Counted from the stretch's first letter, positions 15,691 through 64,000 are shown. The stretch: DNA of 64,000 nt from Phoronis australis (GCA_002633005.1 NMRA01000377.1:316982-380981); one strand, 5' to 3'. The notes: generated by a model not told the origin, from the sequence alone. Program-made: numbers and translations.

Positions 15691-15738
15691 ATGACCTTGC
15701 TCTGGTTATTTTTACTTTTTGTATTTAATGAATTTCAG
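15691..15738 (+). CDS. Gene 2 first coding exon 1a (signal peptide)
   Basis: ATG..MTLLWLFLLFVFNEFQ, consensus donor CAG|GTAAGT, phase 0; spliced to 20484 gives ...FQDVNA/KG, a plausible cleavage site. Confidence 0.65.
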
Positions 15739-18700: not shown

Positions 18701-21700
18701 ACCTTTCGACTTCATTAGCTCAAATCTACACCAATACAAAGGGCGACCTGAATAGGCATCATAAAAGTTATCTGGGGCTAAAAAAAACTTTAGAAGGTAG
18801 CTAACCTTCGGAGTAGTGAACCTTCGGTCATGTACTTGTAATCTTGGAAATCTTTTCCATCAAAATTGTTGCTCGTACGAAATCTGCGAAGCTGTGTACC
18901 ATTGACATTGACTGACAAGAGAAGACTTTCTCCATTAAGTTTTAATTAGGTCAAGACTTACCTAATAATGTGAACATGCGGGGATTTCTCAGTGCAAGAA
19001 TACACGGTAGCTAAATGTCTGAGTTTTGAGAAACGATAGAGTAGTCAGTGAACTTACCGTCGGCGTGTACTGAATTTAATAGAACGGAAACGCACACACG
19101 TGTACACGCATGCATGTCAATCCACCAATCCACAATCAAAGTGGACACTTGATGATCAAGATATTTGGGGATCACTTTAAATTTCTAAATTTGAAAATGC
19201 TTGCAATTAATCCAAACTATGCTAGAAAGTACACCAAAGTAGCAAATATCAAACCCATTTTCTGCTGTTTTGTTTATCGCACTACATTTGGGTATCTCGC
19301 TCGATGCTATAAAGTTTGGGCTAGGCATAGACATTTACTTCTAGACTTCTTTGTTACCCTATGGTGTAGACAGAGACCTAGCGCTATCAATGCCGATGAA
19401 TAACATAAAACATCCTCTAATCGTCATATACGCAGTCACCACTCGGGCCGGATACGACCCGATGATTATGTAAAGCGCTTATCATCAGAAGCAAATTCAA
19501 AATTACTATTAACTTATTTATGATTGTGGTTAGTAGAACTTATAGTTACAACATTTTTTTGTCCATCTAGTAAACCCTATCTTATCCTCATTAGATAGGC
19601 ACGGGCTGGACCTTTTCCTCGGAGAGGGGTTCCATCGAACCCCCGGAACCCCCCTGGCTACAGGGCTGCTAATGCGAATGCGAACCTAGAACCTTCGCGG
19701 TCACAATCATACTTAGAAATAACAAAAATTAGCAGTGATAACAACAATAACAACAATGATAACAACAACAATAATAACTTATAAGAATAATGATAATAAC
19801 AGTGATATTTGCAATAACATGTTTGAGTAATTATTGTTATTACTAATTATCCATGTTATTATAATTATTGCTGTCGCTGTTCTAGTTACTAATTATTATT
19901 ATTATTATTAACAGCATAATAATTAATATTCCTTTATCAACGATTATTGCTATTGCAATAATTATTACTACTATAACCACTTGGTATTATTATTACTATA
20001 ACAATCATTATAACTACTATTATTACTAATTATTATCATTACTTGTGGCGGGACAGGCTGCCGCCCATTAGTGCTAGTCACTATTCATATTCTGGTGTCA
20101 ATTGTGACTTTGAGCTATTTGTTGGCTAGTTATTGATAGGCAAATGCCCATGCTGGTTCTTTGGATACCGCGAGGTTTGAGTCAATCTTTTATCAGAGTT
20201 TGTGAAGCGTGGTTCATCGTTGACATACTTACAAAATACGATGAAAGTGCAGTCACTGGTCTTATTATTTACTTGTGAACTGATACTGTTTATGACCATC
20301 ATCAAAGGAATGCCGACAAGTTTTCAGGGAGTTAGTCAAGGTGCAGAACAAAACGGTTTTCCAACTACATATATTAACTCAGTTGTTCAATAATAAACCT
20401 ATTTCTTATATTTCGGGCACAAGGAATTCGTTCAGTGACAGAACTTATGTTCAAAATGTGTAAACCTTTAATTATATTTATAGGACGTCAATGCTAAAGG
20501 AAAACTTCTTGTGAGCTTTCGGAATTTCAACAACCCCAAACACATCGCATTTGATCAGGACTGTTGTGACGGCGTGTTACTGGGAAGTGGGACATGTACT
20601 GGCACGTGTGATCCGGCGTTTGTATTGTGCATGGGATGGAACGGCACGTAAGTGGAAACCAGAACAGGGTCCTCTTTCATAAAAAGACTACTTCTTTGTC
20701 ATTGAGCATGGTGTTTCCAATGTAACTATCACAGCTGAGCAAAACACAGCATTTTTCGGACATACATAGTAAGCATACACTTCTTTATCAGCAAAAGAGA
20801 AATAAAATTGTCCAACGGGCAAGGTCTCTTTTATTTTCATCCTTGTTCTCTACGCTCTCTATCACATGTCCAAGGTAAAGAGGACGAGTGCACCCGGAAC
20901 ACCACGGGTATTTCGCAGCCTCAAATTTCCACTCGGCGGTACATTCATCTACGCATGTGCGAAATTCAGACATGCATTCGGTCATTCTCCAGTTTGGAGG
21001 TCACATGAATTAAGCCACTAAATGCACAGAGAACGTTCATCTACCAAGAGAAGGTTAAGGCTATGAAAATACACGAGTTGTTCTGGATGGGCCCAATGTT
21101 CTTTCATTCCATAAACTATTTCAAGCAAGTTACTTTTTACATTTTATTTCACTAGCATTGATATATTAAAATTAAAAAAAGATGACATTATTGTCCATAA
21201 ATCGAATTTACATTATATCTGGGCATAAGTGACTTTAGCTGACCTGGCACGTCGATTTCCTCTGTGCTTGCACTTGCAAAGGAAACCTCATAGCAGACGC
21301 AACATACCAGGATGAGATCCTGCAGCATTCAGCAATACCGCATGATTCACCGTTTACAACAGGCACGTAAGCAATGCAGTACATTACAATGCTCTGCGCA
21401 TGCGTATAGAAGCACGTCATAAAAATTCCGCAACTTTCGTCATCTCTCTGCTTTAACAATGAAAAATCTACAATGAAGTTTAACATATTCTAAATTTCTG
21501 ATAACCGGAAAAGTTGAATCACACTGAACTTCACTTTTGAGAAAATCGGAAAAAATAAAAAAACACAAACGGCTGTTTTCGAAGTTTTCTTGTTAATGAT
21601 GTCTTTAACAAAAGACGGCATGAACAATCACGGATGTTTTAGCCATTCTCTGTTTCAGTAGCAGCGCATGTACCGGGGCAGGTCAGTTAGAAGCTGTTGA

Positions 21701-24700
21701 AGCTACAAACGAGAACTTCACGTTTGCTGACCAATCTAATGTCCTCATAGATTTTGAAGAGTGGAATGTAAGTATATTTATTATTGGGATAACTATGGAA
21801 ATCCGGAACGGAAAATACTCCAGTACACACATTCTTTTTGCAAGACAAAAATATAATCAAAATCAAAATTTATCATGCCAGATCAGGACCAAAATTCAAC
21901 ACGTCAGATCCGAGAATTTATCACGCCAGGACAGAAAATAAAAAAATTTATTACGTTAGGAAAATTTCACACGTCCGGAAAATTTTACACATCAGGAAAA
22001 TTTTGTGAGACCACGTGACCATCCACAAGCACGTTACCCCTCGAAGAGATGACGTAATGTGTACACAATGTCTAGCCGACGACAGTCATATTATCGTGAC
22101 AATAATGTTGAATTTCTGTCGTCTCTTCCACGTTTTCCAACAGAAGCCAAATGTACACTTGGATACACTAGTCTTGAATACGACTGAGTTTTACAGACAC
22201 AGCGGATCGTCATTGTCAGGTGGTCTCCTGGCATAAAATTTTCTCCTGGCAAGAAATTTTCTCCTAGCCAGAAAGTCCATGTCCGGACGTGATAAATTTT
22301 GTGTCCTTGCTAGATAAACTATAGGTTCTGGATAGTTAAATTTTGGTTTTGAATCTATCTTTTGGTCATGCAGAGAATTTTATTCTCGAATAGAAAATTT
22401 GTGTCCTGGATTTTTCCGCGTTGGCTTTCCATAGATAAATAATTTGCTCATTGTTCAAGGTGTACTAATATACAAAAAATCTGCAAGGTCACAAATTCAA
22501 CTGCAACAGATTGAGTAATTTAAAGATGAAATATATCAAGTTCTTTACCACATGGAGGCTCATGGTCCCTAGCTTTTGTACTCGATATCGAAAATATTTG
22601 TGACTTTTTCATTCTACTGACTATAGGTACTCGAGTATAATATGGTTCTCTAATCCAATTTCTGACGTAAAAACTCAAAATTTCGTTTCAGATTTCGAGA
22701 TTTTGAATTACAATAATCGAACTTGTAACTTAAAAATGCTTGGGTCTTCAAATACTTACTAGGATTTAGAGAGTGATCCACGTAAGCTACTACATAATCA
22801 CGCTCAGGATAATAGAAAATTATCTCGAGTTTGTACTAAGGTAGAACGGGGGTCAAAAAGAATTTCAAGTACTATGATTTGACACAGAGCCAGGACTGGT
22901 CTTTGGAATGAACCTAAAGATTTTTTGCATTGCGACTACACTCAGCTAAAGTCTTTGTGACAAAAGTTTTTCGGAATATACATGAGCGCAAAATTGTAGA
23001 ATTCTACAGTGATACACCCAAGTGAAAATTTTTAAGAAAAAATCCGAAAAATGCTCCGCAAAAAAGAATGCCATGGTTGGGGCTTACGCTTACTTACGTA
23101 AAAAAGCAAATTTGACTATCGTGCAAATTTTAGGCAGGAAAAAGATTTAAAGCATTTTCCTTAGTCCAGAACAAAAGACATTTTCCCAGTTTTATTATTA
23201 AACGTAGACTAAGAACTTCCATATAACTTTATAAAATATTTACTTGCGTCCCCACGGTAAAAGGTGAATGTTCATTCTCTTTAGATTGCATACTTTGGAG
23301 CTAAACATAAAATGAGCGCTGAGCCATTTTTGGTGATTTCAATTATTGGGGACAAGTAAAACAACACAAGAATAATATGTTAAGTTGTATTGGGAATTTC
23401 AGGGTCACAGATCTACCTTAATTACAAGAGTTAACACAAACATTTGAGGTACACAATGAGTAATTGGGTATCACAGATTAGTATAATACCAAATAGGTAC
23501 TAATACCAAATGGGAAATGGCCGATTACCTACCAAGTTGGTCGAGCAAAACGGCAAATTCAATAATAAGTACCAAATGGGTACAAACTGCCAATGGGCAA
23601 ATATTATAAAGTACCAAGTGGGTACACCAAACGGCCAACTGGACTTAACAACCTGGCAAAGCAGGTTGCGCACAAGCTGAGGGAGCAGACGAGCCGGAGA
23701 GATAAAAAAGATATTGTAAGGAACGTGGTGTTGTGGCTTAGTTTGTGTCGAGAGATGTGACCGGGGTGGAGAGAGGCAATCCACAGTGACAGACGCTAAA
23801 GCGCAGTTTTGGTCGCTAACCAATGAAGTCTTCTCCTGCTTGACGGCAACGCGTTCCGGGCTTGAAGGAGGTACCAGCAGTGACTGTAATAAGAACTATA
23901 ACCAGCAGCAGATTTTGTTCGACTCAGGGTAGGGAGGGTGGGATAGGTATATAACTGTTTCATTGCCGGAGATTTTGTTTAGCACCGCCTCACTGGAGTG
24001 AGATTAACTAAAAAACTTACTATTGTGTTACAGAATGGTGGGTGGTCTTTCCCTAAAGTTGTGTTAGAGAGCTGGATGGGAAAGTCGTTGTTAATATCTG
24101 TTGATAAGACAAAGTACAATATCAAAGGGTCCAAAACTAAAGGAATGCCACCGTTTTTGTTTTTGTCCATTTGTCAACTCTGCCNTCACGACAGGCAGGA
24201 CCAAAATTCAACACGTCAGATCCGAGAATTTATCACACCAGAACAGAAAATTAAAAAAATTATTACGTCAGGAAAATTTCACACGTCCGGAAAATTTCAC
24301 ACGTCAGGAAAATTTTGTGAGACCACGTGACCATCCACAAGCACGTTACCCCTCGAAGAGATTACGAAATGTGTACACAATGTCTAGCCGACGACAGTCA
24401 TATTATCGTGACAACAATGTTGAATTTCTGTCGTCTCTTCCACGTTTTCCAACAGAAGCCAAATGTACACTTGGATACCCTAGTCTTGAATACGACTGAG
24501 TTTCACAGACACAGCGGATCGTTATTGTCGGGTGGTCTCCTGGCATAAAATTTTCTCCTGGCAAGACATTTTCTCCTAGCCAGAAAGTCCATGTCCGGAC
24601 GTGATAAATTTTGTGTCCTGGCTAGATAAACTATAGGTTCTGGATAGTTAAATTTTGGTTTTGAATATATTTTTTTGGTCATGCAGAGAATTTAATTCTC

Positions 24701-27700
24701 GAATAGAAAATTTGTGTCCTGGATTTTTCCGCGTTGGCTTTCCGTAGATAAATAATTTGCTCATTGTTCAGGGTGTACTAATATACAAGAAATCTGCAAG
24801 GTCACAAATTCAACTGGAACAGATTGAGTAATTTTAAGATGAAATATATCAAGTTCTTTACGACATGGGGGCTCATGGTCCCTAGTTTTTGTACTCGATA
24901 TCGAAAATATTTGTGACTTTTTTCATTCTACTGACTATAGGTACTCGAGTATAATATGGTTCTCTAATCCAATTTCTGACGTAAAAACTCAAAATTTCGT
25001 TTAAGATTTCGAGATTTTGAATTACAATAATCGAACTTGTAACTTAAAAATGCTTGGGTCTTCAAATACTTAATAGGATTTAGAGAGTGATCCACGTAAG
25101 CTACTACATAATCACGCTCAGGATGATAGAAAATTATCTTGAGTTTGTACTAAGGTAGAACGGGGGTCAAAAAGAATTTCAAGTACTATGATTAGACACA
25201 GAGCCAGGACTGGTCTTTGGAATGAACCTAAAGATTTTTTGCCTTGCGACTACACTCAGCTAAAGTCTTTGTGACAAAAGTTTTTCGGAATATACATGAG
25301 CGCAAAAATTGTAGAATTCTACAGCGATACACCCAAGTGAAAATTTTTAAGAAAAAATCCGAAAAATGCTCCGCAAAAAAGAATGCCATGGTTGGGGCTT
25401 AGGCTTACTTACGTAAAAAAGCAAATTTGACTATCGTGCAAATTTTAGGCAGGAAAAAGATTTAAAGCGATCTTTGTATTAGAAAATGTCGCTTTAATAT
25501 TTCTGAAAAATTAATTATACATTTTCCTTAGTCCAGAACAAAAGACATTTTCCCAGTTTTATTATTAAACGTAGACTAAGAACTTGCATATAACTTTATA
25601 GAATATTTACTTGCGTCCCCACGGTAAAAGGTGAATGTTCATTCTCTTTAGATTGCATACTTTGGAGCTAAACATAAAATGAACGCTGGGCCTTTTTTGG
25701 TGATTTCAATTATTGGGGACAAGTAAAACAACACAAGAACAATATGTTAAGTTGTATTGGGAATTTCAGGGTCACAGATCTACAAATAATTATTTCAGAG
25801 AAGATACCAGATGGGCACCTTAATTACAAGAGTTAACACAAACATTTGAGGTACACAATGAGTAATTGGGTATCACAGATTAGTATAATACCAAAAAAGT
25901 ACTAATACCAAATGGGAAATGGCCGATTACCTACCAAGTTGGTCGAGCAAAACGGCAAATTCAATAATAAGTACCAAATGGATACAAACTGCCAAATGGG
26001 CAAATATTATAAAGTACCAAGTGGGTACACCAAACGGCCAACTGGGCTTAACAACCTGGCAAAGCAGGTTCCGCACAAGCTGAGGGAGCAGACGAGCCGG
26101 AGAGATAAAAAAGATATTGTAAGGAACGTGGTGTTGTGGCTTAGTTTGTGTCGAGAGATGTGACCGGGGTGGAGAGAGGCAATCCACAGTGACAGACGCT
26201 AAAGCGCAGTTTTGGTCGCTAACCAATGAAGTCTTCTCCTGCTTGACGGCAACGCGTTCCGGGCTTGAAGGAGGTACCAGCAGTGACTGTAATAAGAACT
26301 ATAACCAGCAGCAGATTTTGTTCGACTCAGGGTAGGGAGGGTGGGATAGGTATATAACTGTTTCATTGCCGGAGATTTTGTTTAGCACCGCCTCACTGGA
26401 GTGAGATTAACTAAAAAACTTACTATTGTGTTACAGAATGGTGGGTGGTCTTTCCCTAAAGTTGTGTTAGAGAGCTGGATGGGAAAGTCGTTGTTAATAT
26501 CTGTTGATAAGACAAAGTACAATATCAAAGGGTCCAAAACTAAAGGAATGCCACCGTTTTTGTTTTTGTCCATTTGTCAACTCTGCCCCCATTCATCTGC
26601 CAATGCAGACTAACTTAAACTGACAGTCTGTTCTGACCCATTATTTCAATTTTGACTCATTATTTTAATTTTGACCAAGTATGCCCATTCCCATCCATTC
26701 TATCCATTTTCACTAGTTAGACCATCACTCACTCGTTAAGTAGGTTTCATTTCAATCTAAAACTAAAGGTAATTTGTAGCACACATAGTTTTTGATCCAT
26801 CATTTTGAAATGGACATTATAGGACAAAATGGACAGCCGTGGGTCAGTATATAGATATTTCTTTACAGGGTGATACACAAAATGGACAGCCGTGGGTCAG
26901 TATATAGGTATTTCTTTACAGGGTGGTACACAATTGCTGATAACTGCAGAAGACTATGACACAGCAACGACACAACTTATCGACAGGTTTGTCGTAACAC
27001 ACAAACAGGAAGTTTGTGATGAAAACGAGGCCGCCGCCATCAATAGCTGCAACACCATGGTCGCGACCGGAAGTCGAAAGAATCCTACCACGTAAGTCTC
27101 ATTTTCAACAATTTAAAAATATCGTAGTGTAGTTCGCTGAGGAAACGACATATGCAAGAATTTATGTACTCGTTTATGTAGCTAGACTTTTTGCCACCTA
27201 TTTCGATACATGTGAGTGCCCTGGCCTAGTGTTATCAACATTCTGGGGACAACTAAGTCGTGCGGCATTCTCGAGTGTCTTCCCGAACCCTGGACGGACT
27301 GAAAAGGGTAAATAGACAATTAGAAGTTAAAAGAGATACCTTAGCAACGGCAGTTGTCTGGGGCTTACTCTTGGAAGTGGTACACTTCCACTGCCATAAC
27401 TACTGTACCCCATGCGTTACGTCGCCTTTATGATAGTTTAAATCAATTAATTTGAAGCCGAAAACCATGAGCTTCTAAACTATAGGCGTACTTTAATGCC
27501 ACTCAATTTTCCAGCGCATTTGCATATTGCGTGAAAAGCAGTGGCAAATGATTGGAGGCGATGTTTGCTGATGACTCAGACCGCGCCCCGTTTTGTTTCA
27601 GTTTGGAGATATGTATGGCGGCGTTCTGCGACAAGCACTATTATACAGCCGACTGCTCCGTGTTGTGCGTTCCCCAGGACGACTGTTACGGACACTACAC

Positions 27701-51700: not shown

Positions 51701-54700
51701 CTATTGGTTGGCCCAGGAATACTTGGTTCGTACATGCAATTCGACGTGAGTGGGTCAGATATTGCCCGTTTTACGCCACTGGCTCTTTCAGATTTTGCCT
51801 AATTTATCAACTCATTGACCCGTAGCCGGTTTTACATTTAGTGCCTTTATCACATGGTTTATGTTTGTGATATTTTAGCGTTTCCTTAATTTTTGAAAAT
51901 TTTCAAATTGACAGCAATTCATTAACGCTATGGTTACATAGCATTTTGTTCCCAATTAACAGTCGATTATTATTCTTTTGCTTTTTCAGATTGGAAGTTG
52001 TAATTATCAAGTACAACGTACATTTGGGCCTAAATCTTCACTCACTCAACATCTCCATCCCATCTCTTACCGACCTCCAGACGTCGCTTACATCAACGTC
52101 ATCAACACTTAAGCTTTATATCGGTGACGAACCAGTATTGGACCGACAGCTTTTTGAACTTAATATTTTGGGGCTCGTGAACCTGGAAAGCGTGAAACAT
52201 CAATTGGAAATTGAAATAGCTAATTCGTGGAAAACAGTGTATGAAGGTACGTTGATTAAAAAAGGCATTCATTCTTATGCACTATACGGCAAGAGTTAAG
52301 GTTGAAAATCATCATAGATCTAAGTTGGTATATTTTTCCCAATTGACTCTTTTAAACATGTAAGTGTACTGTCATATAGTGCCACCAGTTTTCAAAAACG
52401 TTACATTAATAGTTCGCTTCCATTCAGATTTGAAGACGTGTAGCTGCATCGAAGTCGTTGTGACGAAGGTTGATACACTATACGATGTTATGAGGTAGGT
52501 GCTCGGATTGATAGAGCTGTGAAGAAGCTTTGTACATTTNTTTATCACATGGTTTATGTTTGTGATATTTTAGCGTTTCCTTAATTTTTGAAAATTTTCA
52601 AATTGACAGCAATTCATTAACGCTATGGTTACATAGCATTTTGTTCCCAATTAACAGTCGATTATTATTCTTTTGCTTTTTCAGATTGGAAGTTGTAATT
52701 ATCAAGTACAACGTACATTTGGGCCTAAATCTTCACTCACTCAACATCTCCATCCCATCTCTTACCGACCTCCAGACGTCGCTTACATCAACGTCATCAA
52801 CACTTAAGCTTTATATCGGTGACGAACCAGTATTGGACCGACAGCTTTTTGAACTTAATATTTTGGGGCTCGTGAACCTGGAAAGCGTGAAACATCAATT
52901 GGAAATTGAAATAGCTAATTCGTGGAAAACAGTGTATGAAGGTACGTTGATTAAAAAAGGCATTCATTCTTATGCACTATACGGCAAGAGTTAAGGTTGA
53001 AAATCATCATAGATCTAAGTTGGTATATTTTTCCCAATTGACTCTTTTAAACATGTAAGTGTACTGTCATATAGTGCCACCAGTTTTCAAAAACGTTACA
53101 TTAATAGTTCGCTTCCATTCAGATTTGAAGACGTGTAGCTGCATCGAAGTCGTTGTGACGAAGGTTGATACACTATACGATGTTATGAGGTAGGTGCTCG
53201 GATTGAGAGAGCTGTGAAGAAGCTTTGTACATTTGTTGTGGTTATCTCGCGTTGCAAGTAAGCTTGTACACTTCCTTATCCGCACTTTACTTTAATAGGG
53301 GAAACTATACTGAAAGCAGAGTCACTTAAATCCGGGAGTCACATTTTAAAGGCTATGGCTAACTTTATTAAACACGACGTAAGGAAATTGCGTGGTTTCT
53401 CGCCACCTGACCTCACATCTATATTGGGATCTGACAAAAGTCTTAAAGAATGCCCCTCTAAGGTATGACTGTCATCCGATTTCAGAAAAGACATATCGCA
53501 GGTATCATATCTGGTTCGCATTAATCGCACGGTCGTTGAGCCTGAACAAAGATTGGCACCACCAGTTAATAAGACCAAACTGACAGGATACGAGGTCATC
53601 AGCGTTATACCCAGTCAGATACGAAACTACAAGGACTCCTACAGCCTCTTCCTGACTGGCTTGGTCAGTGGACAGATTGTCGACTCTGTGGTGTCTTCAC
53701 TGAATTCAACATGGGAAACAGTTCGTAAGGGTAAGCCATTATTAAAGATTTTCAAGAATAAAGCGATAGTATGCGTTACCTGTCTTGTTATTGGTGGCTT
53801 TCAAATTTTCTTGACGACAGTCGTCGGAAATGTCGTGTTCATAAATGACATCAATAGGGCGACTCCGAAGATCTGAGCACAAAAAATTACCAATCGTACT
53901 CGATACCTTTCGTTTTCGGTTTTGGTGAATTTAAACTCAAGTCTGTACAAGTCGCATTTAAGAGCCGGTTTGTGTTGAACATGCGTTGTTCTCTCCAAAA
54001 GAATTTCAATTGAAAATTGTCAGATTAGCTATGTAAAGCACTTTGATATTTGCACTGCCGTCTGTTTATGCTCATCTTGCAAAGAAACAGCAACGTGTAT
54101 ACATGGCTTCCTGCAATACTGCCCAGTAACGTCTTATGAAGTGCATCTGCGTAATATATTCTTCCACATATCACGCTGAGGGTACATCTTTTTCTTACGC
54201 TCTAAGTGTAACTCACTGGTTCGAGAGCTGTGTTCGTGACAATCACAGCTTACTCGAGAATCCACTAGAAAACTATTTGATCACATTTCGTAAACACACT
54301 TAAAACCAGGCAAAGGATTTTAAACCGAGTCTGGAGTGACGTTCGGTTATCCGAAGTCCCTGGAATATTGTCGCTTTCATGTCGAATAACTGAAGATTTT
54401 TTTTTTTCAGATTACGAGAGCTGCAAATGCTTTAACTTGGAAGTTGCCCAAGTTGGCAAGTTTGTTAATTCCAAAGGGTAAGTGCGGTTCGTACACTGAA
54501 CAATGTATTAAAAAGAGCAGATACTACAAGTCGTTATTGTCAAATGCGTACTAGATACAAGAATGTCTGCTAGGCACGGAGATTTTTAAATTTTACAACA
54601 CTTGCAAAGGAATGATCATGTTTTAACCAAAACATGAGCACGAACTTTAAAATTAGAACGTAAGTAAACAAAGACATATTGATCTGACGTTTTGGCTAAT

Positions 54701-57700
54701 TCGCTATAAACCATTTTCAAGCAAAGATTCACACTATTGACTAATGTGAGCTTTTGTCTTGAGAATGATTTGTAGTGAATAAAGTTTGTAAGGGAATGGA
54801 CGGAGAAAAGTGCTAGAGTAACAGAGGAGAGCTCTGCTCATTGACGGGAAAATGGCAATGCTAATACATGTTTCACCAATGGTTAAAGGCACTGGAAGTT
54901 CAAAAGGCGAGATTGGGCATAACGGTTTTGAGTTAGCCTTTAGGAATGGCACGATTTTGTGTTTTTGTTTTTTCAGGAAAGATGTGTCGCGAATCCGATA
55001 CTTTGTGGTAGTAAACCAAACTGTTGTGTCGTCAAAGCGAGAGGTTCCTGGTGCGTCCTTCCAGCAACTAATCGAGGAGAAAATAACCGATCTTCAACTA
55101 CGTGACGTTTATGGAGAAAAGTTGTCAGTATTGGGCAAGACTGAAATCTCTCAACTTCAAAGCATCAGCGATCTTAAGCAAGTCTTTGTTAAAGGACGCG
55201 TGGCGGATCGAAACATCAAGGCACTTAAAGCCGCCATATTGAACGCTTGGAACAAAGTATTTGGTAGGTCAGGTCTTTTGACACACACTTTAAGTAACAA
55301 TGATGAAGTATTAATCTTGCTTTACCTGAAATTATTTTGAAACTTAAATTTTTAGTGAAATCTACAAAGTCGTAGGCATAGCGGATATTATGGGACAGTC
55401 CAGTTTTGGTGATCTCCAAATAACATCAAAACTATTGACTGGTTGATTAATTCGAAGAAGACTACTGTTCAATCATCTTTTTTAGTAATTGCACCACGTT
55501 GTTTTTTCCAGGTCTTGTTGATGTTAACGTAATGAAGACAAAGACATTTGTAGATAATCGTCGGTGAGTAGAGTCAACGTTTTCTGGGCCATTTATTTCA
55601 GCATTGAAACTGCTTTTAAAATGAGGGATGTTTCTAATTGCACGTTTTGAGATTTTACTTCTTTAGCTTGTCATGTCTTTTTAGCGGTGTCATCACCTCT
55701 TTGGAGTATTCAGTGAAAAATGCTACCACCAACGCATCGATCGTAGAGAACGAGAACACAACAACAGACGTGCAGCGGCAACTGGAAATCGCAATCTCCT
55801 CCGTGAATCATACCAGGGGAGATAAGTACCAAGTGACGACTCTGGATCCTTCAACGTTAGGGTCACTTCAACCGTACAACCTACACTACTCACTCTTTAT
55901 TGTGGGCAAGATCTCTCGTAGCGACCTCTCTTATTACAAAGAATCTTTGAGATCCGCTTGGTTACTGGAATATCCAGGTAACTTTTAAAGCGCCTACTGT
56001 TACTTTTTGATGTTGTTATGTTCTAAACTGATTAGATTAATCATGCAGTGATCTTTCTGAGGTTCTGTTAAGTCCGCAGAAAATTAACGCCGGATCTCAT
56101 GATTCACAAAAAAAAACAAATATTTTAAATAGATTTCCCAGTAGCGCCTTTACCATACTGTGTAAACCAACTTTGTGCGACTGTGAGCCAATGAAATTCC
56201 AGGATCGCGCATAACTGGATGTTATAACATTACGTACTGCATTGAGTTCGAACTCTTATCACGGAAAATTTAATAGCGATTGAAGAAAACAAACAAATGG
56301 AAAAAATAGTAAGAGCGATTAAAAAGTCAGACACCAATACTTAACTAACATCATCACCATCACCATCACCATCACCATCACCATCATCATCACCATCACC
56401 ATCATCATCATCATCGGGCATCTATTGCAGTCTTCCAGTCGTTTTGTTGAAAGGTTAAATCAATGCTAACAACCAATGTTGTACTTCTTTAGATTTGACA
56501 AACTGTGGCTGCAACTTCACAATGGAATTTGGTCCACTGGAACAGTACGTTGGCGAGTTCAACTCTGAAGTTACTAAGATCACTTACTGGGTGAAACGAG
56601 ACAACGTCTTTGAATCCACGTTTACTCTCGCTGAACCGGCGCCCAATGAGTTGGAGAACGTCGTGAAGTCGTTTGGCGGCGCGTATGGTGTATACACCGG
56701 TACAGCTCCATCACCTATGACCGTGCAGTACTCGGTGGATGTCCTCGGAACCCTGCAATATTCAAACATTGTCACCATCATACAGGGCCTGAATCAGTCT
56801 TGGTCAAATTATTGTAAGTCAACAGGAATTCTTCCTTCGCTGATTCATAGGCGTTTCAATGAACTGGGAAGTGACAAAGTAAATTAGATTGCTGGAGGCT
56901 GTTCCAGTGCATAAAAGTAATGTAGTCGACGACTGATTGTCAAAACACTAGCAAGTACTCTGCGGAGGTTTCAAAGGAAATAGCATATACGTACTGGAGT
57001 CTATGTCTTACATTCGAAGAAAATCTTACCCCAGCTATTGGTTGTCGTATTTCCTTGAGTTGTAAATATCACGTTCTTTTTTCAGTGAAGACTGAATGCA
57101 ACGACTGTGCAGTACAAGTAAAAATTGGAAACAGCCGCAGCCTTCTTACATTGTCAAGGTAAAGACAACCTTTTACCTTGGATAGTCCTCTGCTAATGGC
57201 TAAATGTATCCTAAGCAGTTGCCCCACAGCAGGCTATCACTGGTCTTAGGAATTGTCTTTCATGTTTTGTTGCTATGATGCGTGCTGATAGTTCTACTGT
57301 ACACTGTGTTGCTATGATGCGTGCTGATAGTTTTACTGTACACTGTGTTGCTATGATGCGTGCTGATAGTTCTACTGTACACTGTGTTGCTATGATGCGT
57401 GCTGATAGTTCTACTGTACACTGTGTTGCTATGATGCGTGCTGATAGTTCTACTGTACACTTTGTGGGTCAAGATTGCCTTGGTTGCTTATCCTGATGAT
57501 GACTTATGAGACATCAAAACGTGTTGAAGTGGAAACATCTCGTTGTTTTATTAATAGTCACATACTTGTCTTCGGTGAGACCAGTTAACAATACCGGTTT
57601 CTAACAAACTCGGAGAAGAACAAATGACGAAAGTATTCCCACATGCGTTTTACTTGCCGATGTAGGCAGTGCTGGCTAAACATACTCCGTTCTGAAGTTA

Positions 57701-60700
57701 CAAAAACTGTTCCGCATTTATTCACATTTTGGACATCGGGAAATGAAAAATTGACCTGCCTAATTGTTTATGATAATTTTCTGTGTTTCAGGCAAGCGAG
57801 CACACGTCTTGTATATTCCGTGCTTGTCAACGGAGAAGCCATTGATGTTAAACCTCCAACTAATGACCAAATCAAAAATGCTGTAGAGAGCGTTGGATTC
57901 AATGTCTCGACTGCGGTCAAATTGGACATCCAAGAACTTACTTTGGACGGAAACCTCGTGTTAGAGCAGGTTGACAAAGTTGCAACAAGCATTGAAACAA
58001 CATGGAGCAGCACCGTAAAATCATCTTCCGTCGCCGTAAACGTGGTTTCAACTGAAACATTCGTTAAAGAAAACAAAAGGTAATTTATTTTTTTGGTAAA
58101 ACTGTGATATTTTAGAACCTCGCCAAAAGATACCATTTTTAACATACCTCTTCATTTGCTTTTTCGTTTCGTATTCAATTTCCAGCAAGCACAAGTGGCT
58201 TTGCGACAATCAGTATTCTTGTGTACGTTATGCCCTAGGAGAAAAATGTTCATCCATTTAAATTCTTTTTCGTTCTTTGTTCTAGCCCCGCAACGAAACT
58301 TAAGTTTGCTGTAACGGTGAACGGTACAAGTCCCCAGGACTTGACCACCGTTGTTGCTCCGCCTGAATCATTAATAACTAAGAACATACAGAATGCTACT
58401 GATATCAGCCCGTGCGGCTGCGCGGCCAGAAAAGTTCACAGCCTCGTTGTAAAGAGCAGTTCTGTAGTTACCAGCAGAGCAGTAATCGCAGAAGGTATCT
58501 CTCAGGCATGGAGAACTGCAAACTCCCCAGGTGAATTTTTTTTTTCAGTTTCAGCCCATATGTTTTCACATATTTTAGTGGCTCAGGAAACACTTTCATT
58601 AGTTGACAAGCGTTTAAAATATTTGATTGAGGAGTTGAAATAACTTAATCAAAGTAGCATCTACTTAAGTTCATTTCTTGTGGCTATCCTTCGCACGAAA
58701 ACAAGTGCGAGTATAGATTTCACTTTAAAGGTGTAACGATCAATTGGTAGTTCATTCTTTAGCTAACGGGCTCGCATGGTCCTTTTTTCATTGTAGATTT
58801 CAATCTTACCGGCTTTGTCGTCGATGTCGTCAGTGTGGACAACGGCCTAATTGACACGGCAAGGTAAATGGAATTTAAATAGCTGTAGAAATTACAGCCT
58901 ACTTTTTGTCGCTGAACTGCTCTGTATAGAAGACACATTTAGTTTTAAAAACCTCTATGCGGTGATTCCAAAGTGAAAGAGGACTGTTATATACGTGTTG
59001 CCTGATTTTATTTTTCTTGCTTTTTTAGCAATGCCCAGACACAACAGCGGGTCAGGCGAAGTATTCGAGGAAGACGTGCTGACGAACCTGCGTGAGTGTT
59101 TGGCTATGTTAACATATATCAAAATGTAGCCGCTTCTATTATAAGTACACAGTATTGCTGAATTTGCAAGGCTTGAACTCCAAGTGTACATGAGATGCAG
59201 GCCTAACTAATACAGGATTCCGTCCGTGTTGAAAAGAAAAATTATCGCAAAAAGTTGTTGGGTAATTACGCCGAAAATCGTCTGGCTTCGTTGAAGTTAT
59301 GTCGTAATACACAAAAACAGACGAACAATAACGCTCAACTTATATTTGGAAATTAAGCAGAAAAGTTTGCTTCGAAATTTTGTGTCTGCAACATGGATTG
59401 AATTATAATAATCTTTGATCTGGGCCATCATAGGTCAGTTTTCAAACTTTACTTTCAAGCATTATACAGTTTTGACTGAACCCATCATAACGTTTACTGG
59501 CGTGATTTGCTTCACTATTTATCATTATTCAGGGTAACGAAGATCGATTATATCGCTGGCATTAACAACATGGACTCGAGTTTACTCATGATACAGCAGC
59601 CGTCGACAGTGGAGCTATCAAAGCAACTTGGAACGGAAGTGTGCACTGACTGCGAGGCCAGCCGGGTTTATATGTTCCATGCCAACTCGGCACTGAAAGC
59701 TATGGATAACAAGGACATCCAAGCTGCTCTAAAGACCGCTTGGGAAACCGTTAACTCAGGTAAGGATACTTGTGCCAGCTGACCAGCAGAATAATTTGAA
59801 TTCAGTTATTGCTAGGAATGTCCTCATGCTCTGCAATAAATGGGATAACTAGCCCTTTTCAGAAATCTGCAAGGATTTTATCATTTCGAGTTATGCACTT
59901 TGGTACACTGTGAGTTACAAATGAATAAGGGAAATGACATCTGTTGGAATCTGACATTGGTTTGGATAAACTTGCACTAGTTGAAACGGACAACGAAGAT
60001 TGATTATTGTAAATCTATTGCCAAAATTGGTTCTGGGGAAGGACGACTTCAATCATTACATTTTTCTATCGCCGCTTTACATTTTCAGGTGTTGCTAACT
60101 TGACTGTTGGTGCTACGGTGTCGTCCAAGGAGAATCTTTACGATAAGAAAGGGTGAGTTTGCTTAGAACGTTCACGTTTTGTTTCTAACCTACGCACTTG
60201 AAATCTTATACCTCCCGCAGTACGTTAACAGTTTCGTGACAGCAATAAATTCACAATGTTTCTATTCGAAGTGTTTCCCAATTTTTCGATGCTGTCATAC
60301 ACCATCAGGGAGTCTGTCATCCATCACAGCAATCAACTTTTGCTTTAGACATCTTACTCTTATAAAATTGGTCTCAATGTTTCCTTAGTCAAATTTTAGA
60401 TGGTTTAAGGACTTCAAAAGACGTGATGCATCTACCTCGTTATTGTTTTAAACACGAATCTTTAAATTGGCTTGACACAGCATGTCATTTTAAGCACAGA
60501 CCTTGATCTTAACGATTAACAACCCTAAATGACTTCTCATCTGAAGAACAAACAGGTAACTAGTAGTTTTAATCAAACGTTCACTCCTTGTACGGAATGC
60601 TGATTTACATACACTTTAAATGCAATATCATTACAGTCAAGTACCAATGCCGAATACGTTAAATCAAAATTGGAAAACCCATTACCCTACTCTCTGTGTT

Positions 60701-63202
60701 TCGTGCTCTTGATTACATGGCCGTTTCATTTGAAAGGTCAACTTTCCTTTGTCTTTTCAAGAACATCTCTATCCACGTACATGTATCGTTTTCAAAGAAG
60801 TACCGTCCACATGTATACGCTACAGCAACCGAAAACGTCACTTTTTCTGTACGCTCTGAACACAAATGAGGGAACACCAAAGTTTTTGAGATGTTGCGTT
60901 TTCGCCCGCCAACAGGCCCCCTAAAACGATGACGGTGTCAGCTTTTCTAAAAGTTATTTTTTGGGTTGTGATACGTATGGACACACGTCCTATTCCCAAA
61001 ACGTTTACTTTTTGTTAAAAACTTCATCTCGAGATTTGGTTTTGCTTGTCAAATCCAATGGATACGTGCAGGTTAGACGTCGAAAGCTGTATCCGTAAAG
61101 AAAAATGATGGTGTCAGTGGACAGGGGGTCAATTACGTTGCAAACTTAAAATCTAAGAGCCAATAATTTGAACATGTATTGGTTAAGTTATCACGAAATA
61201 AATGTATCATTTGGCAAACTTAATTAGCTAGGCTATTATCTTTTCTTGCAGCAATGATATTATACGAGTGCAGTACACAATTCGACCGACAGCTGGCGGT
61301 GTGGCGCAGTCAGAAGATAGGTTAATAGCACCCTCTGATGACGAAATAGAGAAAAGTTTGAAGTTAATCGACCCAAATGTCGAACTCTTCCAAGGAGATG
61401 TTTTCAAGACTAAAAATAAAGACAAATTCATACCATCAATAACTAACGTATGTAATTATTCAAAAACAATAATTTTAATCATTGTACTGTTAAGAATTTT
61501 TTGAAGCGGCTGTAAACTTGTCTTCCATCTGCTGTCTGTAATCGAATTTGTCTTTTTCTCGTATAGAACTCGGTCTCATAATACTCCTGATCGTGAGTAG
61601 AATCCCATTTTCATGATGAACCCCAGTCAAAGGCAATGGGTTTCTTGTGCCATTTTTGAAGCGTTTTCTTGGGTCGCTATCTTTTCGATGTTCTTGTTGG
61701 TAAACGAAATGGAATCCAGTCAGGGTAAAGAGTATTATGACGTAGTTTTAGTCAGCTTAACAGGGTCAAATGTAACTTCAAGCTCCTAAACTAGTGCGTA
61801 AAGACTCTTTTTACTTCAGGGAATTACGAAAGGCATAACATGTATATCCTTTAAACGTCACAGATTTACACATACATGTATTCCGTAAGGAAAGTATACG
61901 TTCGTAATTTAAGCTCTTACATAATGGTCAATAGTTAATATACTCTCATATCCTACTACAGCTATGTAGTTATGTGACTGAGTTTTACCTGGCTTAACAA
62001 CGATGCTTCAGAAGCCCGATTGACATTGTTGTACTTTGAGTTCCCGATTGAAAGACGTGTTTACCGACCTCCTTAAGTAAAGCACTTGCTCAGTATTGAT
62101 GTAGTGAAAACAATTAATAAAAATTCAAACTTTGTCTTCCAGGAGCCATGGTTCTGGCCCGTTGTGATCGCTGTCGGCGGACTGCTTCTCATTCTTATTG
62201 TCGTGCTTGTAGTGAATGCATACAGACGATACGGCAGGTAAGTTTACTTCGCGAGCGGAAAGTTAGTGTGATGAAGTGCTTCGCTTGCATCGCCTGATGA
62301 TCTCTTGATTAAGTTGCGCCATCTGGCTTATCTCGCGGCAGCCTTGCTCCACTCAACGTGGTGCAAATTTTGTCAAGTCAAAGCGACTAACACACGTCAA
62401 GCTGAATGAAATCAAATTATAGGATCCAAATTGCGATCCTGAACGGTCAATGGATTTCATTTGTTTCACTGAATTATGTTTTAAAACTAGGAACGGTCAT
62501 TTAGTCACATTATTAAAAATCGAAACGAAGGGATCCACCCCGAAAAGGAACAAAAACAATCATGATTTTTGAAGAAATTGATGTAGGTGGCTTTAAGCCT
62601 AGTTTAACACGCGTTTGGCAAGAACACTCAAATCTTCGCGAGATAACGCCACGTGTTACGTACATTAAGTAAACCACGTCATAGCACTAACTTTCACTCG
62701 CGAGTGTCTTGTGTTACGAAACTGGCATTGTGGTTGCATTATTACAGTTAAATTTATTTCGAATAAATTGAAAATCTTGATATCCTTAAGCTCTTGAAAA
62801 TATTTCCTGCAGGGTTACGTAATGGGTATACATCTTCTCTGCTGTTCTTTTGCACAAGTTGACAATTATCTTCTGCATAAGTTGACAATTTTTAAAAACA
62901 CAGTATTTCACATTTCTGGGATTTTCAAAATTGAATCGTTTTTTTGTCGAGGGACCACAGAAGATGTGCCACGCCTCTAAATCGTGAAAATAGTATGTAA
63001 GGGATTGTTTACATGCCACTAACCGTTTTTGTTGCGAATTGAATGCTGCCGTGTGCTTTTAATTCTTCTGTTTTTACTTTACAGACAAAAATCTGCTCTG
63101 TCTGTCAGTCAAACAGATTTCAGAGAAGAAATCGATTTCACGTATGCAAAGGCAAGGGCATTCGAGGCTTCTAATCCAATGTACACCTCTTTAGCTGTTT
63201 AG
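15691..63202 (+). CDS. Giant Delta/Notch-ligand-like transmembrane mucin (signal peptide-MNNL/C2-DSL-EGF-[SEA-like modules + PTS mucin]n-TM-NPxY tail), about 53 exons, about 4,000 aa
   Basis: GT-AG junctions keep frame from ATG 15691 to TAG 63200-63202, except where N joins interrupt exons at 44332 and 47762. The DSL cysteine pattern is unmistakable. Repeated exons are paralogous, and a hydrophobic TM exon and short tail close the gene. Confidence 0.85.
17320..19668. mobile_element. Ends of a CAGG-type MITE separated by ~2.2 kb of other sequence
   Basis: Left caggcccgtagccag..gggggtggttcga..ggacctttt; right ggacctttt..tcgaaccccc..ctggctacagggctg (13/15 inverted match); no clean TSD. Confidence 0.4.
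19736..20040. repeat. Degenerate (AAC/AAT)n and (ATT)n microsatellite tract
   Basis: acaacaataacaacaatgataacaac... followed by attattattattatta runs. Confidence 0.8.
20241..20330 (+). CDS. Gene 2 alternative first coding exon 1b (signal peptide)
   Basis: MKVQSLVLLFTCELILFMTIIKGMPTSFQG, donor |GTTAGT (same donor type used at 5525, 6655, 51500), phase 0. Confidence 0.55.
20484..20647 (+). CDS. Gene 2 exon 2: N-terminal Notch-ligand (MNNL/C2) domain, part 1
   Basis: KGKLLVSFRNFNNPKHIAFDQDCCDG...TCTGTCDPAFVLC matches the Delta G-x-F-E-L-x-L-x-x-F-x-N...CC...C...C-x-x-F-x-VC pattern. Confidence 0.85.
21659..21767 (+). CDS. Gene 2 exon 3: MNNL/C2 part 2
   Basis: SSACTGAGQLEAVEATNENFTFADQSNVLIDFEEWN; phase 2 to 0; GTAAGT donor. 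Confidence 0.8.
21793..22434. mobile_element. Non-autonomous DNA transposon with long imperfect TIRs and 4-bp TSD
   Basis: Termini CTATGGAAA...TTTCCATAG flanked by ATAA on both sides; subterminal short repeats (caggaaaatttcacacg on the left, aaattttctcctggca on the right). A partial second copy ends at ~24748. Confidence 0.7.
21873..26587. repeat. ~2.3-kb near-identical direct duplication across N at 24185 (probable allelic overlap)
   Basis: 21873-24184 vs 24186-26587 differ by SNPs and by ~50-bp and ~35-bp indels. Confidence 0.85.
26824..26933 (+). repeat. 53-bp tandem duplication containing the exon-4 splice acceptor
   Basis: aatggacagccgtgggtcagtatatag(a/g)tatttctttacagggtg(a/g)tacacaa twice; acceptor AGs end at 26868 and 26921. 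Confidence 0.9.
26922..27091 (+). CDS. Gene 2 exon 4: MNNL/C2 part 3
   Basis: GGTQLLITAEDYD...QLIDRFVV resembles Delta WPGTFSLIIEA...LISR; phase 0 to 2. Confidence 0.8.
27602..27795 (+). CDS. Gene 2 exon 5: DSL domain
   Basis: CDKHYYTADCSVLCVPQDDCYGHYTCNQTTGRKMCNKGWTGEHC has the DSL consensus spacing. Confidence 0.93.
28673..28976 (+). CDS. Gene 2 exon 6: EGF-like domain, Thr-rich linker, first half of module 1
   Basis: C(TAGFG)CLNDGQCVPYLNSFYCCCKPGWKGPLC then PTTASTTTTK...TWV...RFAWVFTN. Confidence 0.88.
29678..33066 (+). CDS. Gene 2 cassette 1 (exons B 29678-29919, C 31520-31571, A 32704-33066)
   Basis: B ends WENTYP; C = EYKECSCLTVEISKLSV; A carries a Thr-rich stretch and LENAWLYSN; phases 2-1-2-2. 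Confidence 0.8.
31650..32028. mobile_element. Possible PIF/Harbinger-like MITE remnant
   Basis: Left taa-gggccgccgcagacggatagctac vs reverse complement of right gcccagcacagacggagagttac; internal direct repeat agctacgagctgag. Confidence 0.35.
33334..35855 (+). CDS. Gene 2 cassette 2 (B 33334-33563, C 35095-35146, A 35265-35855)
   Basis: WENAYA / EYKNCSCLKILI / long PTS stretch + ILVAWKEVN. Confidence 0.8.
34541..34862. repeat. Degenerate minisatellite with higher-order (~137-bp) period
   Basis: ~49-bp units ccg..ataatttgag.cc..aaaata.cc.ggtgtt.cggatg interleaved with ~38-bp variants. Confidence 0.7.
36834..38695 (+). CDS. Gene 2 cassette 3 (B 36834-37072, C 37680-37731, A 38339-38695)
   Basis: AWLTTFP / QYKNCGCLDIEI / PTS + IMTAWFEVN. 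Confidence 0.8.
38937..40630 (+). CDS. Gene 2 cassette 4 (B 38937-39157, C 39601-39655, A 39836-40630)
   Basis: LWEETYT / ELKGCGCVEIDI / ~190-aa PTS + LLESWILTN. Confidence 0.8.
41121..41182 (+). pseudogene. Truncated relic of a B exon
   Basis: ttctcag|VDIRFIRHNLEILVTGVLVT, then diverges into a stop (TAG); homologous to the start of B exon 41737. Confidence 0.7.
41230..47761 (+). repeat. Tandem segmental repeat, unit ~1.66 kb (exons plus introns), at least 4 copies
   Basis: B-exon spacing 41737-43396 = 1659 and 45292-46954 = 1662; intron text (e.g. aatagtaaggatgcaaagtgaatgaagcaaacatt) recurs in each unit. Confidence 0.92.
41737..49122 (+). CDS. Gene 2 cassettes 5-9, near-identical recent copies (B 41737/43396/45292/46954/47820; C 42095/43754/45650/47312/48188; A 42390/44049/45945/47610/48505)
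   Basis: B exons 233 nt ending VWELRYP; C exons 55 nt RYIQCSCLEIKI; intact A exons 468 nt. A exons at 44049 and 47610 are broken by N joins. Confidence 0.8.
49271..51499 (+). CDS. Gene 2 cassette 10 (B 49271-49509, C 50454-50505, A 50834-51499)
   Basis: NWQVTYP / EYKNCDCFRVEL / PTS + IRLAWIQTN. Confidence 0.8.
49610..49730 (+). mobile_element. Decayed tRNA-derived SINE head
   Basis: B-box-like ggtctcgagtccc followed by cccttgagtgaagtctct; similar A/B-box relics at ~4890-4945 (-) and ~16075-16130 (+). Confidence 0.35.
51846..53234. repeat. 695-bp-offset, essentially identical duplication across N at 52540 (assembly overlap); duplicates exons 51990 and 52428
   Basis: 51846-52539 matches 52541-53234 with one visible substitution. 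Confidence 0.88.
51990..61447 (+). CDS. Gene 2 membrane-proximal modules without mucin linkers
   Basis: Exons 51990-52246, 52428-52494, 53486-53730, 54411-54477, 54977-55263, 55512-55563, 55685-55977, 56493-56813, 57086-57158, 57792-58079, 58286-58530, 58797-58863, 59533-59759, 60089-60152, 61252-61447. All are phase-consistent and retain the helix-W and V-x-Y-x-V motifs. Confidence 0.8.
56349..56415. repeat. (CAT/CAC)n microsatellite, intronic
   Basis: catcatcaccatcaccatcacc...catcatcatc upstream of the acceptor at 56492. Confidence 0.9.
57268..57461. repeat. 5 x 39-bp minisatellite, intronic
   Basis: Unit tgttgctatgatgcgtgctgatagttctactgtacactg. Confidence 0.95.
62143..62237 (+). CDS. Gene 2 transmembrane exon
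   Basis: EPWFWPVVIAVGGLLLILIVVLVVNAYRRYG: ~22 hydrophobic residues followed by basic stop-transfer residues; CAG|GTAAGT donor. Confidence 0.88.
63085..63202 (+). CDS. Gene 2 terminal exon: cytoplasmic tail with NPxY
   Basis: tttacag| acceptor in phase 2; RQKSALSVSQTDFREEIDFTYAKARAFEASNPMYTSLAV*. Confidence 0.8.
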
Positions 63203-64000
63203 TAGTGATTTTAGACAAGTATGAAATATATGTATATGCTCAAATTTATTAAAGATACTCCTCCGTCGTTTTCATCAATTTTAAACACATAATGAGTCTC
63301 ATCAATACTAAGATATAACTGAGTTCGAACTATACATGTACCCTGCGATAAATTGCGGTCTTGTACAATTAGTTATAAGTATGAATTATTTAGACGTCTT
63401 GAACAGTGAAGTTTAATTTTCTACGATTCAATCTATGGCTGCCTCTCTGTTGGTGTACCACCCGAAATTCTAATAGTGTACGTTTTATATTGAATGTTGT
63501 ATATTTTGAGATGTGCCAAAGCTCGTGTCGGGAAGTGTTTATCTGTAGCGGTTAAGTCTCTTTAATTTGTGATGTGCAGTATGTTTGTAAACAGCGCAAG
63601 ATAGTCCCTCAGGATCAGCACGCTTTCGCCATTTCATTTGAAAATTCCCGCGAGATTACCTTGTTATCAGATGAATGTTTGAAACTGAATGAACTGAGAT
63701 GTTTACAATTCTCTTTTGTAGTATTTGGTTTTGAACAGGTAAAATGAATTGTACACTTCATCTCAGTCTTAGTGTTTGTCTTTGTCTTGTTGACTGTTTA
63801 CATTGTGGACCTGTGACTTGAAGTCGTTTTTGCTGTTTTTGACCGCACCTCCGATCTGTATTGCGTTATGTGTACAGTGCGTATGTTACTTAAAATATTT
63901 TATGCTCGATATGCATAACTTTTGTAAAAATTTAAAACCTGACTTACATGTTATGTCGACTTTGAGATTTCTTCGCCCGCAATCTAATCTCAGAACTCGG

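Follow-up and report, generated by a model that had tools for sequence, protein, structure and literature searches.

A Delta-type head on a long repeat stalk: a predicted giant membrane protein of Phoronis australis and its mollusc and annelid relatives

We analysed a window of 64,000 nucleotides from Phoronis australis (GCA_002633005.1, NMRA01000377.1:316982-380981), an AT-rich stretch of DNA with six single-N gaps. Between positions 15691 and 63202 on the plus strand lies a gene model of 54 exons, which encodes 3,944 amino acids, has a single terminal stop and uses GT-AG introns throughout. The predicted protein has the following order: a leader, an MNNL domain, a DSL domain, one EGF, 28 modules of ~90 amino acids with eight Ser/Thr tracts, a transmembrane segment and a 38-residue tail. 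A head of the kind found in Notch ligands is very likely joined here to a giant stalk in one type I membrane protein, for which we found relatives in molluscs and an annelid. The features of the gene are listed below (bp, base pairs).

15691..15738, + strand: exon 1, with the start codon and a hydrophobic leader, likely a signal peptide that is probably cleaved early in exon 2; the donor is in the top percentile of GT sites
20484..27091, + strand: MNNL/C2 domain (exons 20484-20647, 21659-21767 and 26922-27091), from Pfam MNNL and the homologue alignment
27602..27795, + strand: DSL exon with an altered Notch-binding loop, an extra Cys and the first EGF Cys, from Pfam DSL; RNA depth 0
28673..28976, + strand: rest of the single CCC-type EGF, a linker rich in Thr and the opening half of module 1, from Pfam EGF and the homologue profile; RNA depth 0
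29678..40630, + strand: distal stalk of divergent three-exon units (module half-pairs, a 52-55-bp CxC exon and a Ser/Thr-rich exon); joint 39655>39836 in five reads
41737..49122, + strand: tandem block, expanded recently, whose three-exon units are nearly identical; the assembly is interrupted at 44332 and 47762; B exons 87-97% identical
49271..58863, + strand: middle and proximal stalk modules, including a likely artefactual duplicate exon pair (52685-53189); seven junctions read-confirmed
59029..59091, + strand: 63-bp exon whose furin-type motifs, RVRR and RGRR, fall in the loop between beta2 and beta3 of the penultimate module; both junctions read-confirmed
59533..61447, + strand: remainder of the penultimate module, then the final module next to the membrane (exons 59533-59759, 60089-60152 and 61252-61447); all junctions read-confirmed, 37.6 bits with the homologue profile
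62143..62237, + strand: transmembrane exon, from hydropathy; both junctions read-confirmed
63085..63202, + strand: cytoplasmic tail with an NPMY motif and the stop codon; the 3' untranslated region runs on to at least 63900

The exon model was made by reading the sequence, which gave 56 candidate exons from 15691 to 63202, and 54 were kept. Exons 52685-52941 and 53123-53189 were left out because they are a 99.7% copy adjoining the N at 52540 and likely reflect a scaffold overlap. To keep the frame free of stops, we passed over 235 bp of overlapping sequence at N44332 and put an X in the exon that N47762 interrupts; of five gaps examined, four had overlapping sequence on both flanks. With scoring matrices derived from splice sites that reads confirm, all splice sites lie at or above the 92nd percentile except the acceptor of the EGF exon (83rd) and the end cut by a gap. 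A preliminary description, made from the sequence alone, had proposed one frame of about 53 exons and ~4,000 amino acids, and the model bears this out. The leader has a mean hydropathy of 1.77 over residues 2-14 and aligns with the N-termini of homologues. The only 19-residue windows with hydropathy >1.8 are in the transmembrane exon (maximum 3.2), in agreement with the membrane anchor and short tail proposed earlier.

We scanned 29 of the 54 exons, including 24 stalk, transmembrane and tail exons, with Pfam. The MNNL (22.9 bits, cut-off 22.5), DSL (55.4 bits, cut-off 24.2) and EGF (22.9 bits, cut-off 21.5) domains of the proposed head all scored above their cut-offs. The MNNL match is confined to the first MNNL exon, the two later ones giving no Pfam match above cut-off. 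Neither a VWC domain nor a further EGF was detected in the 29 exons or in the model sequence. Over residues 3-259, identity with the Aplysia homologue is 36.7% (E 6e-45), and the best PDB sequence match of the DSL exon is DLL1 (E 9e-13). When proteins of 113-2000 amino acids were searched by words for homologues of the DSL exon, none matched. At the third MNNL exon, a 53-bp tandem repeat (26824-26933) duplicates the acceptor, and splicing to the upstream copy would cause a frameshift.

A profile built from homologues only detected 28 modules in the model and 0 in 50 locally shuffled copies; module 1 occupies residues 278-366 (15.7 bits). More than 20 copies of a ~100-residue module had been described, and this stands with a module length of ~90. 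The true number is uncertain because two assembly gaps lie in the tandem block 41737-48052. The modules had also been described as interleaved with Thr/Ser/Pro tracts. Eight dense Ser/Thr tracts are indeed present, but they cover only ~650 of the 3,944 residues and none lies among the nine membrane-proximal modules, so the stalk is mostly folded beads. Ser and Thr make up 22.8% of the whole model, many modules contain CxC motifs, and 78 N-glycan sequons are predicted. Within the tandem block, five B-type exons differ mostly at non-synonymous sites (0 synonymous versus 11 non-synonymous differences in one pair), raw counts that suggest relaxed or diversifying selection.

Transcription was assessed with three raw same-species RNA runs (18-19% of each) and one contig set, mapped on 26650-42850 and 52545-63900. 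The stalk and tail are transcribed and spliced: 16 of the 53 junctions were confirmed by reads, every one in the stalk or tail. In 52545-63900, 12 of 17 junctions were confirmed, the reads have the orientation expected for plus-strand RNA in a usual stranded library, and coverage reaches the end of the stretch. In 26650-42850, reads contain 3 of 17 junctions plus one repeat-unit join; the tandem-block joints 41969>42095, 42149>42390 and unit-to-unit were seen in reads that any of the copies could have produced. The junction check proposed with the preliminary description thus succeeded at the tail (61447>62143 and 62237>63085) but not at 27795>28673>29678, because depth is zero over the DSL and EGF exons.

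This zero depth bears on whether head and stalk belong together. In all four runs depth was 0 over 27191-29354, a stretch that holds both the DSL exon and the EGF exon, and none of the reads joins the head with the stalk. Two separate genes, or a dead remnant of a head upstream of a shorter stalk transcript, would account for this and for the near lack of reads 5' of 35 kb, and no acceptor in the model is weaker than that of the EGF exon. Zero 5' depth fits 3' bias on a ~12.5-kb mRNA and also fits a shorter head-less transcript; the steady fall in depth toward the 5' end is as expected for an mRNA of this length. The gene structure argues for a link. The EGF is split across 27795/28673, its first Cys being encoded by the DSL exon and the remainder by exon 28673; that exon runs on, without a change of frame, into the initial half of module 1. 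The split position is colinear with the Aplysia, Biomphalaria and Elysia proteins. Open reading continues in phase through the head exons, whose splice sites, other than the EGF-exon acceptor, rank in the 92nd-100th percentile. DSL and modules also occur within one predicted protein in nine named homologues, which are gene models too, from nine independent genomes. Because the EGF spans the junction, shares an exon with module 1 and is colinear in homologues, head and stalk very likely form one gene, and we regard two genes or a dead head as highly improbable.

A profile of 14 Phoronis stalk exons retrieved 39 proteins among 1.84 billion representatives. Of the 25 matches scanned, six carry a DSL domain; cluster members and a further search added Haliotis rufescens, Mizuhopecten and Saccostrea. 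DSL and modules were found together in nine named proteins, all of them automatically labelled, which answers the architecture search proposed earlier and places the Delta-type head and the stalk in single predicted proteins outside Phoronis:

Long-form homologues: Patella caerulea KAK6195844.1, Potamilus KAK3591160.1 and Haliotis rufescens XP_048255349.1 (27 modules each), and Saccostrea echinata LOC133190156 (26 modules)
Five-module homologues (heterobranch snails and a scallop): Aplysia XP_012936519.1, Biomphalaria XP_013079301.2, Elysia RUS79891.1 and Mizuhopecten XP_021363915.1
Annelid homologue: Owenia CAH1774350.1, 14 modules, with VWA

All named homologues are mollusc or annelid, apart from two EGF-only matches. 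Profile hits P0011, P0016 and P0036 were false, with no module under a refined profile, and the same was found for the sea cucumber and fluke matches. MNNL, DSL and EGF stand in ligand order at the N-terminus in Phoronis, Patella and Saccostrea. The Phoronis protein shares with its homologues the extra-Cys DSL, the CCC-type EGF and the same modules ahead of the transmembrane segment, and shares the furin loop with the long-branch homologues. It differs in having one DSL followed directly by the EGF and in placing Ser/Thr tracts between distal modules, whereas homologues have one block. No homologue exceeds 24% identity to the Phoronis C-terminal region. In a tree of the last three modules it sits on a long branch, in none of the starred groups. 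On the evidence of these predicted sequences, the protein belongs to an old lophotrochozoan family spanning gastropods, bivalves and an annelid, and is not the lineage-specific, one-off chimera first proposed. The expectation that automated annotation would split the protein was borne out by several head-less database fragments (Haliotis asinina, Ruditapes, Gigantopelta, Mya and Lymnaea). Architectures vary within the family. Potamilus and Patella carry a ~120-residue, Pfam-unmatched domain between the DSL and the EGF core (residues ~160-350) that is absent from the Phoronis protein. P0005, P0008, P0010 and P0028 form a branch with several DSL-EGF units and only five modules, and the Owenia protein has many EGFs besides its VWA domain.

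The family is apparently undescribed, with a conserved architecture built from known parts. Its members bear automatic names only, several of them 'Delta-like'. In published work, such proteins were placed in an unanalysed 'DSL-like' bin, defined by a DSL and at least one other conserved domain (PMC5356439), or unexpected architectures were discarded from the survey, whose Delta2 is a short protein without a transmembrane segment (PMC8166818); lophotrochozoan Notch-pathway surveys thus set the family aside by design. The Phoronis protein fits the 'DSL-like' definition, which is a catch-all and not a described family. We searched the literature on mollusc DSL and SEA proteins, mantle and mucus proteomes and six homologue locus identifiers and found no report of the family, broader queries yielding papers on the Notch pathway in general; subscription papers and most supplements lay outside this search. 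Seven supplement files of PMC5356439 contained no match to it.

We compared the DSL loop with those of known ligands. Aligned to DLL1 and JAG2, the Phoronis loop has Val and Gln in place of two arginines, Tyr in place of the last Phe, and Cys at the next-to-last position. At the positions that we take to be equivalent to R203 and F207 of Jagged1, it has Gln and Tyr, so the residues of functional ligands are absent. Across the family we compared 18 loops found by pattern in ten proteins. Arg occurs at the R203 position in none of the 18 and at the R201 position in two; the F207 position is variable, 17 of the 18 loops have the extra Cys, and all ten proteins have a CCC-type EGF. In Jagged1, R203K abolishes Notch binding and F207 is counted in the binding site (PMC5538765). 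Because the loop is altered throughout the family, the long-range Notch ligand suggested earlier is disfavoured, and the Phoronis protein is probably not a Notch activator.

The fold of the modules was assessed by prediction. None of the 24 stalk, transmembrane and tail exons scanned had a Pfam match above cut-off. Of the Pfam checks proposed earlier, those for the head domains were positive, while SEA gave no match on Phoronis exons (half-modules) or on whole homologues, nor did UPF0606 with E up to 1 on Phoronis exons and 0.5 on homologues. A PDB sequence search with the stalk profile gave nothing below E 0.3. An AlphaFold2 model of a Gigantopelta fragment contains three ferredoxin-like units and a transmembrane helix, with modules mostly above 90 in predicted local distance difference test (pLDDT) score; the Phoronis exon 57792-58079, two half-modules, is predicted to fold at pLDDT 87.6. 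In a wide structural search with the homologue model, PCDH15 MAD12 came first (Z 7.5, root-mean-square deviation 3.6, 88 residues aligned), and the other entries of ranks 1-7 are CELSR1, a nuclear-pore chain and CDH23 MAD28. The top 25 also contain domains of MUC16, TMPRSS6, GPR126 and IA-2, the MUC16 SEA at Z 5.3-5.6. IA-2 and MAD-type domains have been tied to the SEA superfamily (PMC3174154, PMC11527881). Foldseek returned generic ferredoxin folds for the three-module homologue model; for the Phoronis exon it put DUF77 proteins at the top and the IA-2 ectodomain in fourth place, with no match reaching E <0.001. The ESM Atlas gave leads only for the homologue query (a SEA cluster at 0.80; HMA-repeat structures at a template-modelling score <0.5) and no usable match for the Phoronis exon. 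These models predict a ferredoxin-like, SEA-type fold, in keeping with the SEA-like stalk described earlier; we read the enrichment of SEA-type neighbours as SEA-like, short of proof of SEA membership.

Two features near the membrane were absent from the preliminary description. RVRR and RGRR sit in the read-confirmed 63-bp exon of the penultimate module, in a loop that is of low confidence in the AlphaFold2 homologue model. An R-x-[RK]-R motif lies 246-267 residues from the C-terminus in Phoronis, Potamilus, Patella, Haliotis rufescens, H. cracherodii, Mya and Saccostrea; Gigantopelta has one in the same loop, and Ruditapes and one unnamed protein have RxxR variants. Furin cleavage in a membrane-proximal SEA-like domain was shown for KIAA1549 and cited for Notch (PMC13570299), and we infer that furin cuts the Phoronis loop as well. 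The tail contains an NPMY motif and lysines and ends in SLAV. We make no claim of a PDZ ligand because the C-terminal residues are not conserved.

The protein resembles three known groups in part. With Delta, Serrate and Jagged proteins (DLL1, DLL4, JAG1 and JAG2) it shares the leader, the MNNL/C2, DSL and EGF order, a single transmembrane segment and a short tail. Delta proteins are defined by a signal peptide, MNNL, DSL, nine or more EGF repeats, a transmembrane segment and an intracellular domain (PMC5356439). The Phoronis protein has the MNNL, DSL, transmembrane and intracellular parts, but one EGF instead of nine or more, no VWC (Jagged/Serrate proteins have at least 16 EGF repeats and a VWC), SLAV instead of the ancestral Delta end ATEV, a changed loop and ~3,600 extra stalk residues. 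With MUC1, MUC16 and MUC17 it shares large Ser/Thr tracts, predicted SEA-type repeats, a transmembrane segment and a short tail. GSVV is the autoproteolysis motif of the beta2-beta3 loop in MUC1-type SEA domains. The Phoronis model contains one GSVV, which lies after beta4 and not in that loop; it has a furin loop instead, a DSL head and no Pfam SEA match. A membrane-proximal SEA-like domain with a basic furin loop also occurs in KIAA1549, in the PKHD1L1 MAD-like domain and in the Notch heterodimerisation domain, where the loop is cut by, or predicted for, furin (PMC13570299, PMC11527881), and PCDH15 MAD12 is the top structural neighbour of the homologue module model. Compared with these proteins, the Phoronis protein has 28 modules instead of one to three, other N-terminal domains and no UPF0606 match.

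We give about an even chance to the protein being a furin-processed, recycled tether of the surface coat, whose tip binds membranes or glycans and does not activate Notch. All functional steps of this scheme are conditional. Furin would cut within the penultimate module's loop, leaving two parts that stay non-covalently attached to each other, like those of Notch and KIAA1549. The rod, roughly 0.1-0.25 micrometre long as estimated from general per-domain and per-residue lengths, would be stiffened by O-glycosylation of the Ser/Thr tracts and by N-glycans at the sequons. The extra DSL Cys may pair with the extra EGF Cys, remodelling the face that true ligands use for Notch. Shear, pulling or a sheddase could free the ectodomain into mucus or matrix, and the NPxY tail could drive endocytosis and recycling via PTB-domain adaptors. 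A putative adhesion or mucus-surface role appears the best of the three functional ideas of the preliminary description, the others being a long-range ligand and a decoy.

Besides the missing reads over the head, several points weigh against a non-Notch, furin-cut tether. The best structural Z of 7.5 is below 8, a level that the tool describes as common, and non-SEA ferredoxin folds score near it. The furin loop is absent from Owenia and the five-module branch, and NPxY is kept in only three of nine homologue tails, with variants in three and none in three, so neither feature is essential to the family. Lipid binding by C2 is known for human ligands and is conjectural for the Phoronis C2. Medusozoan ligands vary at the same Notch-contact sites (PMC12166595), and the invertebrate Notch interface may tolerate other residues; for this reason, we grade the loss of Notch binding by the altered DSL only as likely.

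A force-sensing antenna is a related and unlikely reading, in which the remodelled DSL tip would grip a non-Notch partner (or Notch) and a pull would open the cleaved SEA module, leading to shedding and to signalling or uptake via the NPxY tail. We consider it unlikely that the protein is a structural precursor whose ectodomain would be released by cleavage and form polymers in mucus, cuticle, tube or shell matrix, with the head as an assembly module. The furin site, heavy predicted glycosylation, CxC motifs, the recently expanded repeat block and the restriction of named homologues to mucus- or shell-secreting animals fit such a precursor, but the transmembrane segment and tail motifs are conserved, one branch lacks the furin loop, and the literature search found no proteomic record.

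Two further readings keep Notch as the partner. A Notch decoy or cis-inhibitor, a tethered or shed head that binds Notch weakly and does not activate it, is decidedly doubtful: the losses at R203 and F207 should weaken inhibitory binding as well, and a 3,600-residue stalk would be unnecessary, even though the DSL cysteine framework and C2 are intact, the furin site would permit release and some family members have at least three DSL loops. A genuine Notch ligand of long reach, whose stalk bridges a wide gap and whose NPxY endocytosis supplies the pulling force, would explain why MNNL, DSL and EGF are retained in ligand order and why the tail carries an endocytic-type motif and lysines. We consider it improbable, since the R203-equivalent Arg is lost in all 18 loops, one EGF stands against the nine of an ancestral Delta (PMC5356439), the ~120-residue insert parts DSL from EGF core in Patella and Potamilus, and a non-covalent joint left by furin, lying in series with the rest, would weaken the chain when force is applied.

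An apparently unnamed family has been hidden under 'Delta-like' labels and split entries, and a divergent repeat of predicted SEA type, in arrays of 26-28, has been overlooked by Pfam. The DSL is kept across molluscs and an annelid despite the lost Notch-binding arginine, which makes a role of DSL/C2 heads outside Notch testable; practicable hosts would be Aplysia, Biomphalaria, oyster, abalone and Owenia. Were the antenna reading true, an old lophotrochozoan receptor family would combine a Notch-ligand head and a Notch-like furin-cut SEA joint within a single molecule, with its tip 0.1-0.25 micrometre above the cell.

Other features of the window were noted. A 2.3-kb intronic duplication (94%) at 21884-26587 surrounds the N at 24185 and likely represents two haplotypes end to end. 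At 41121-41182, a truncated 62-bp copy of a stalk exon is followed by a stop and is likely a pseudo-exon. An intronic repeat at 34541-34860 attracts many partial reads with varied loose ends and is likely a dispersed element; an intronic CAT-type microsatellite lies at 56349-56415 and a 39-bp minisatellite of five copies at 57268-57461. Upstream, a multi-exon gene (838-9817, plus strand) has a long acidic last exon and an N-flanked duplicate (6950-8127). It yielded only three matches, all bivalve; one of its exons matches TPR-repeat proteins at 63-64%, one of them with NACHT.

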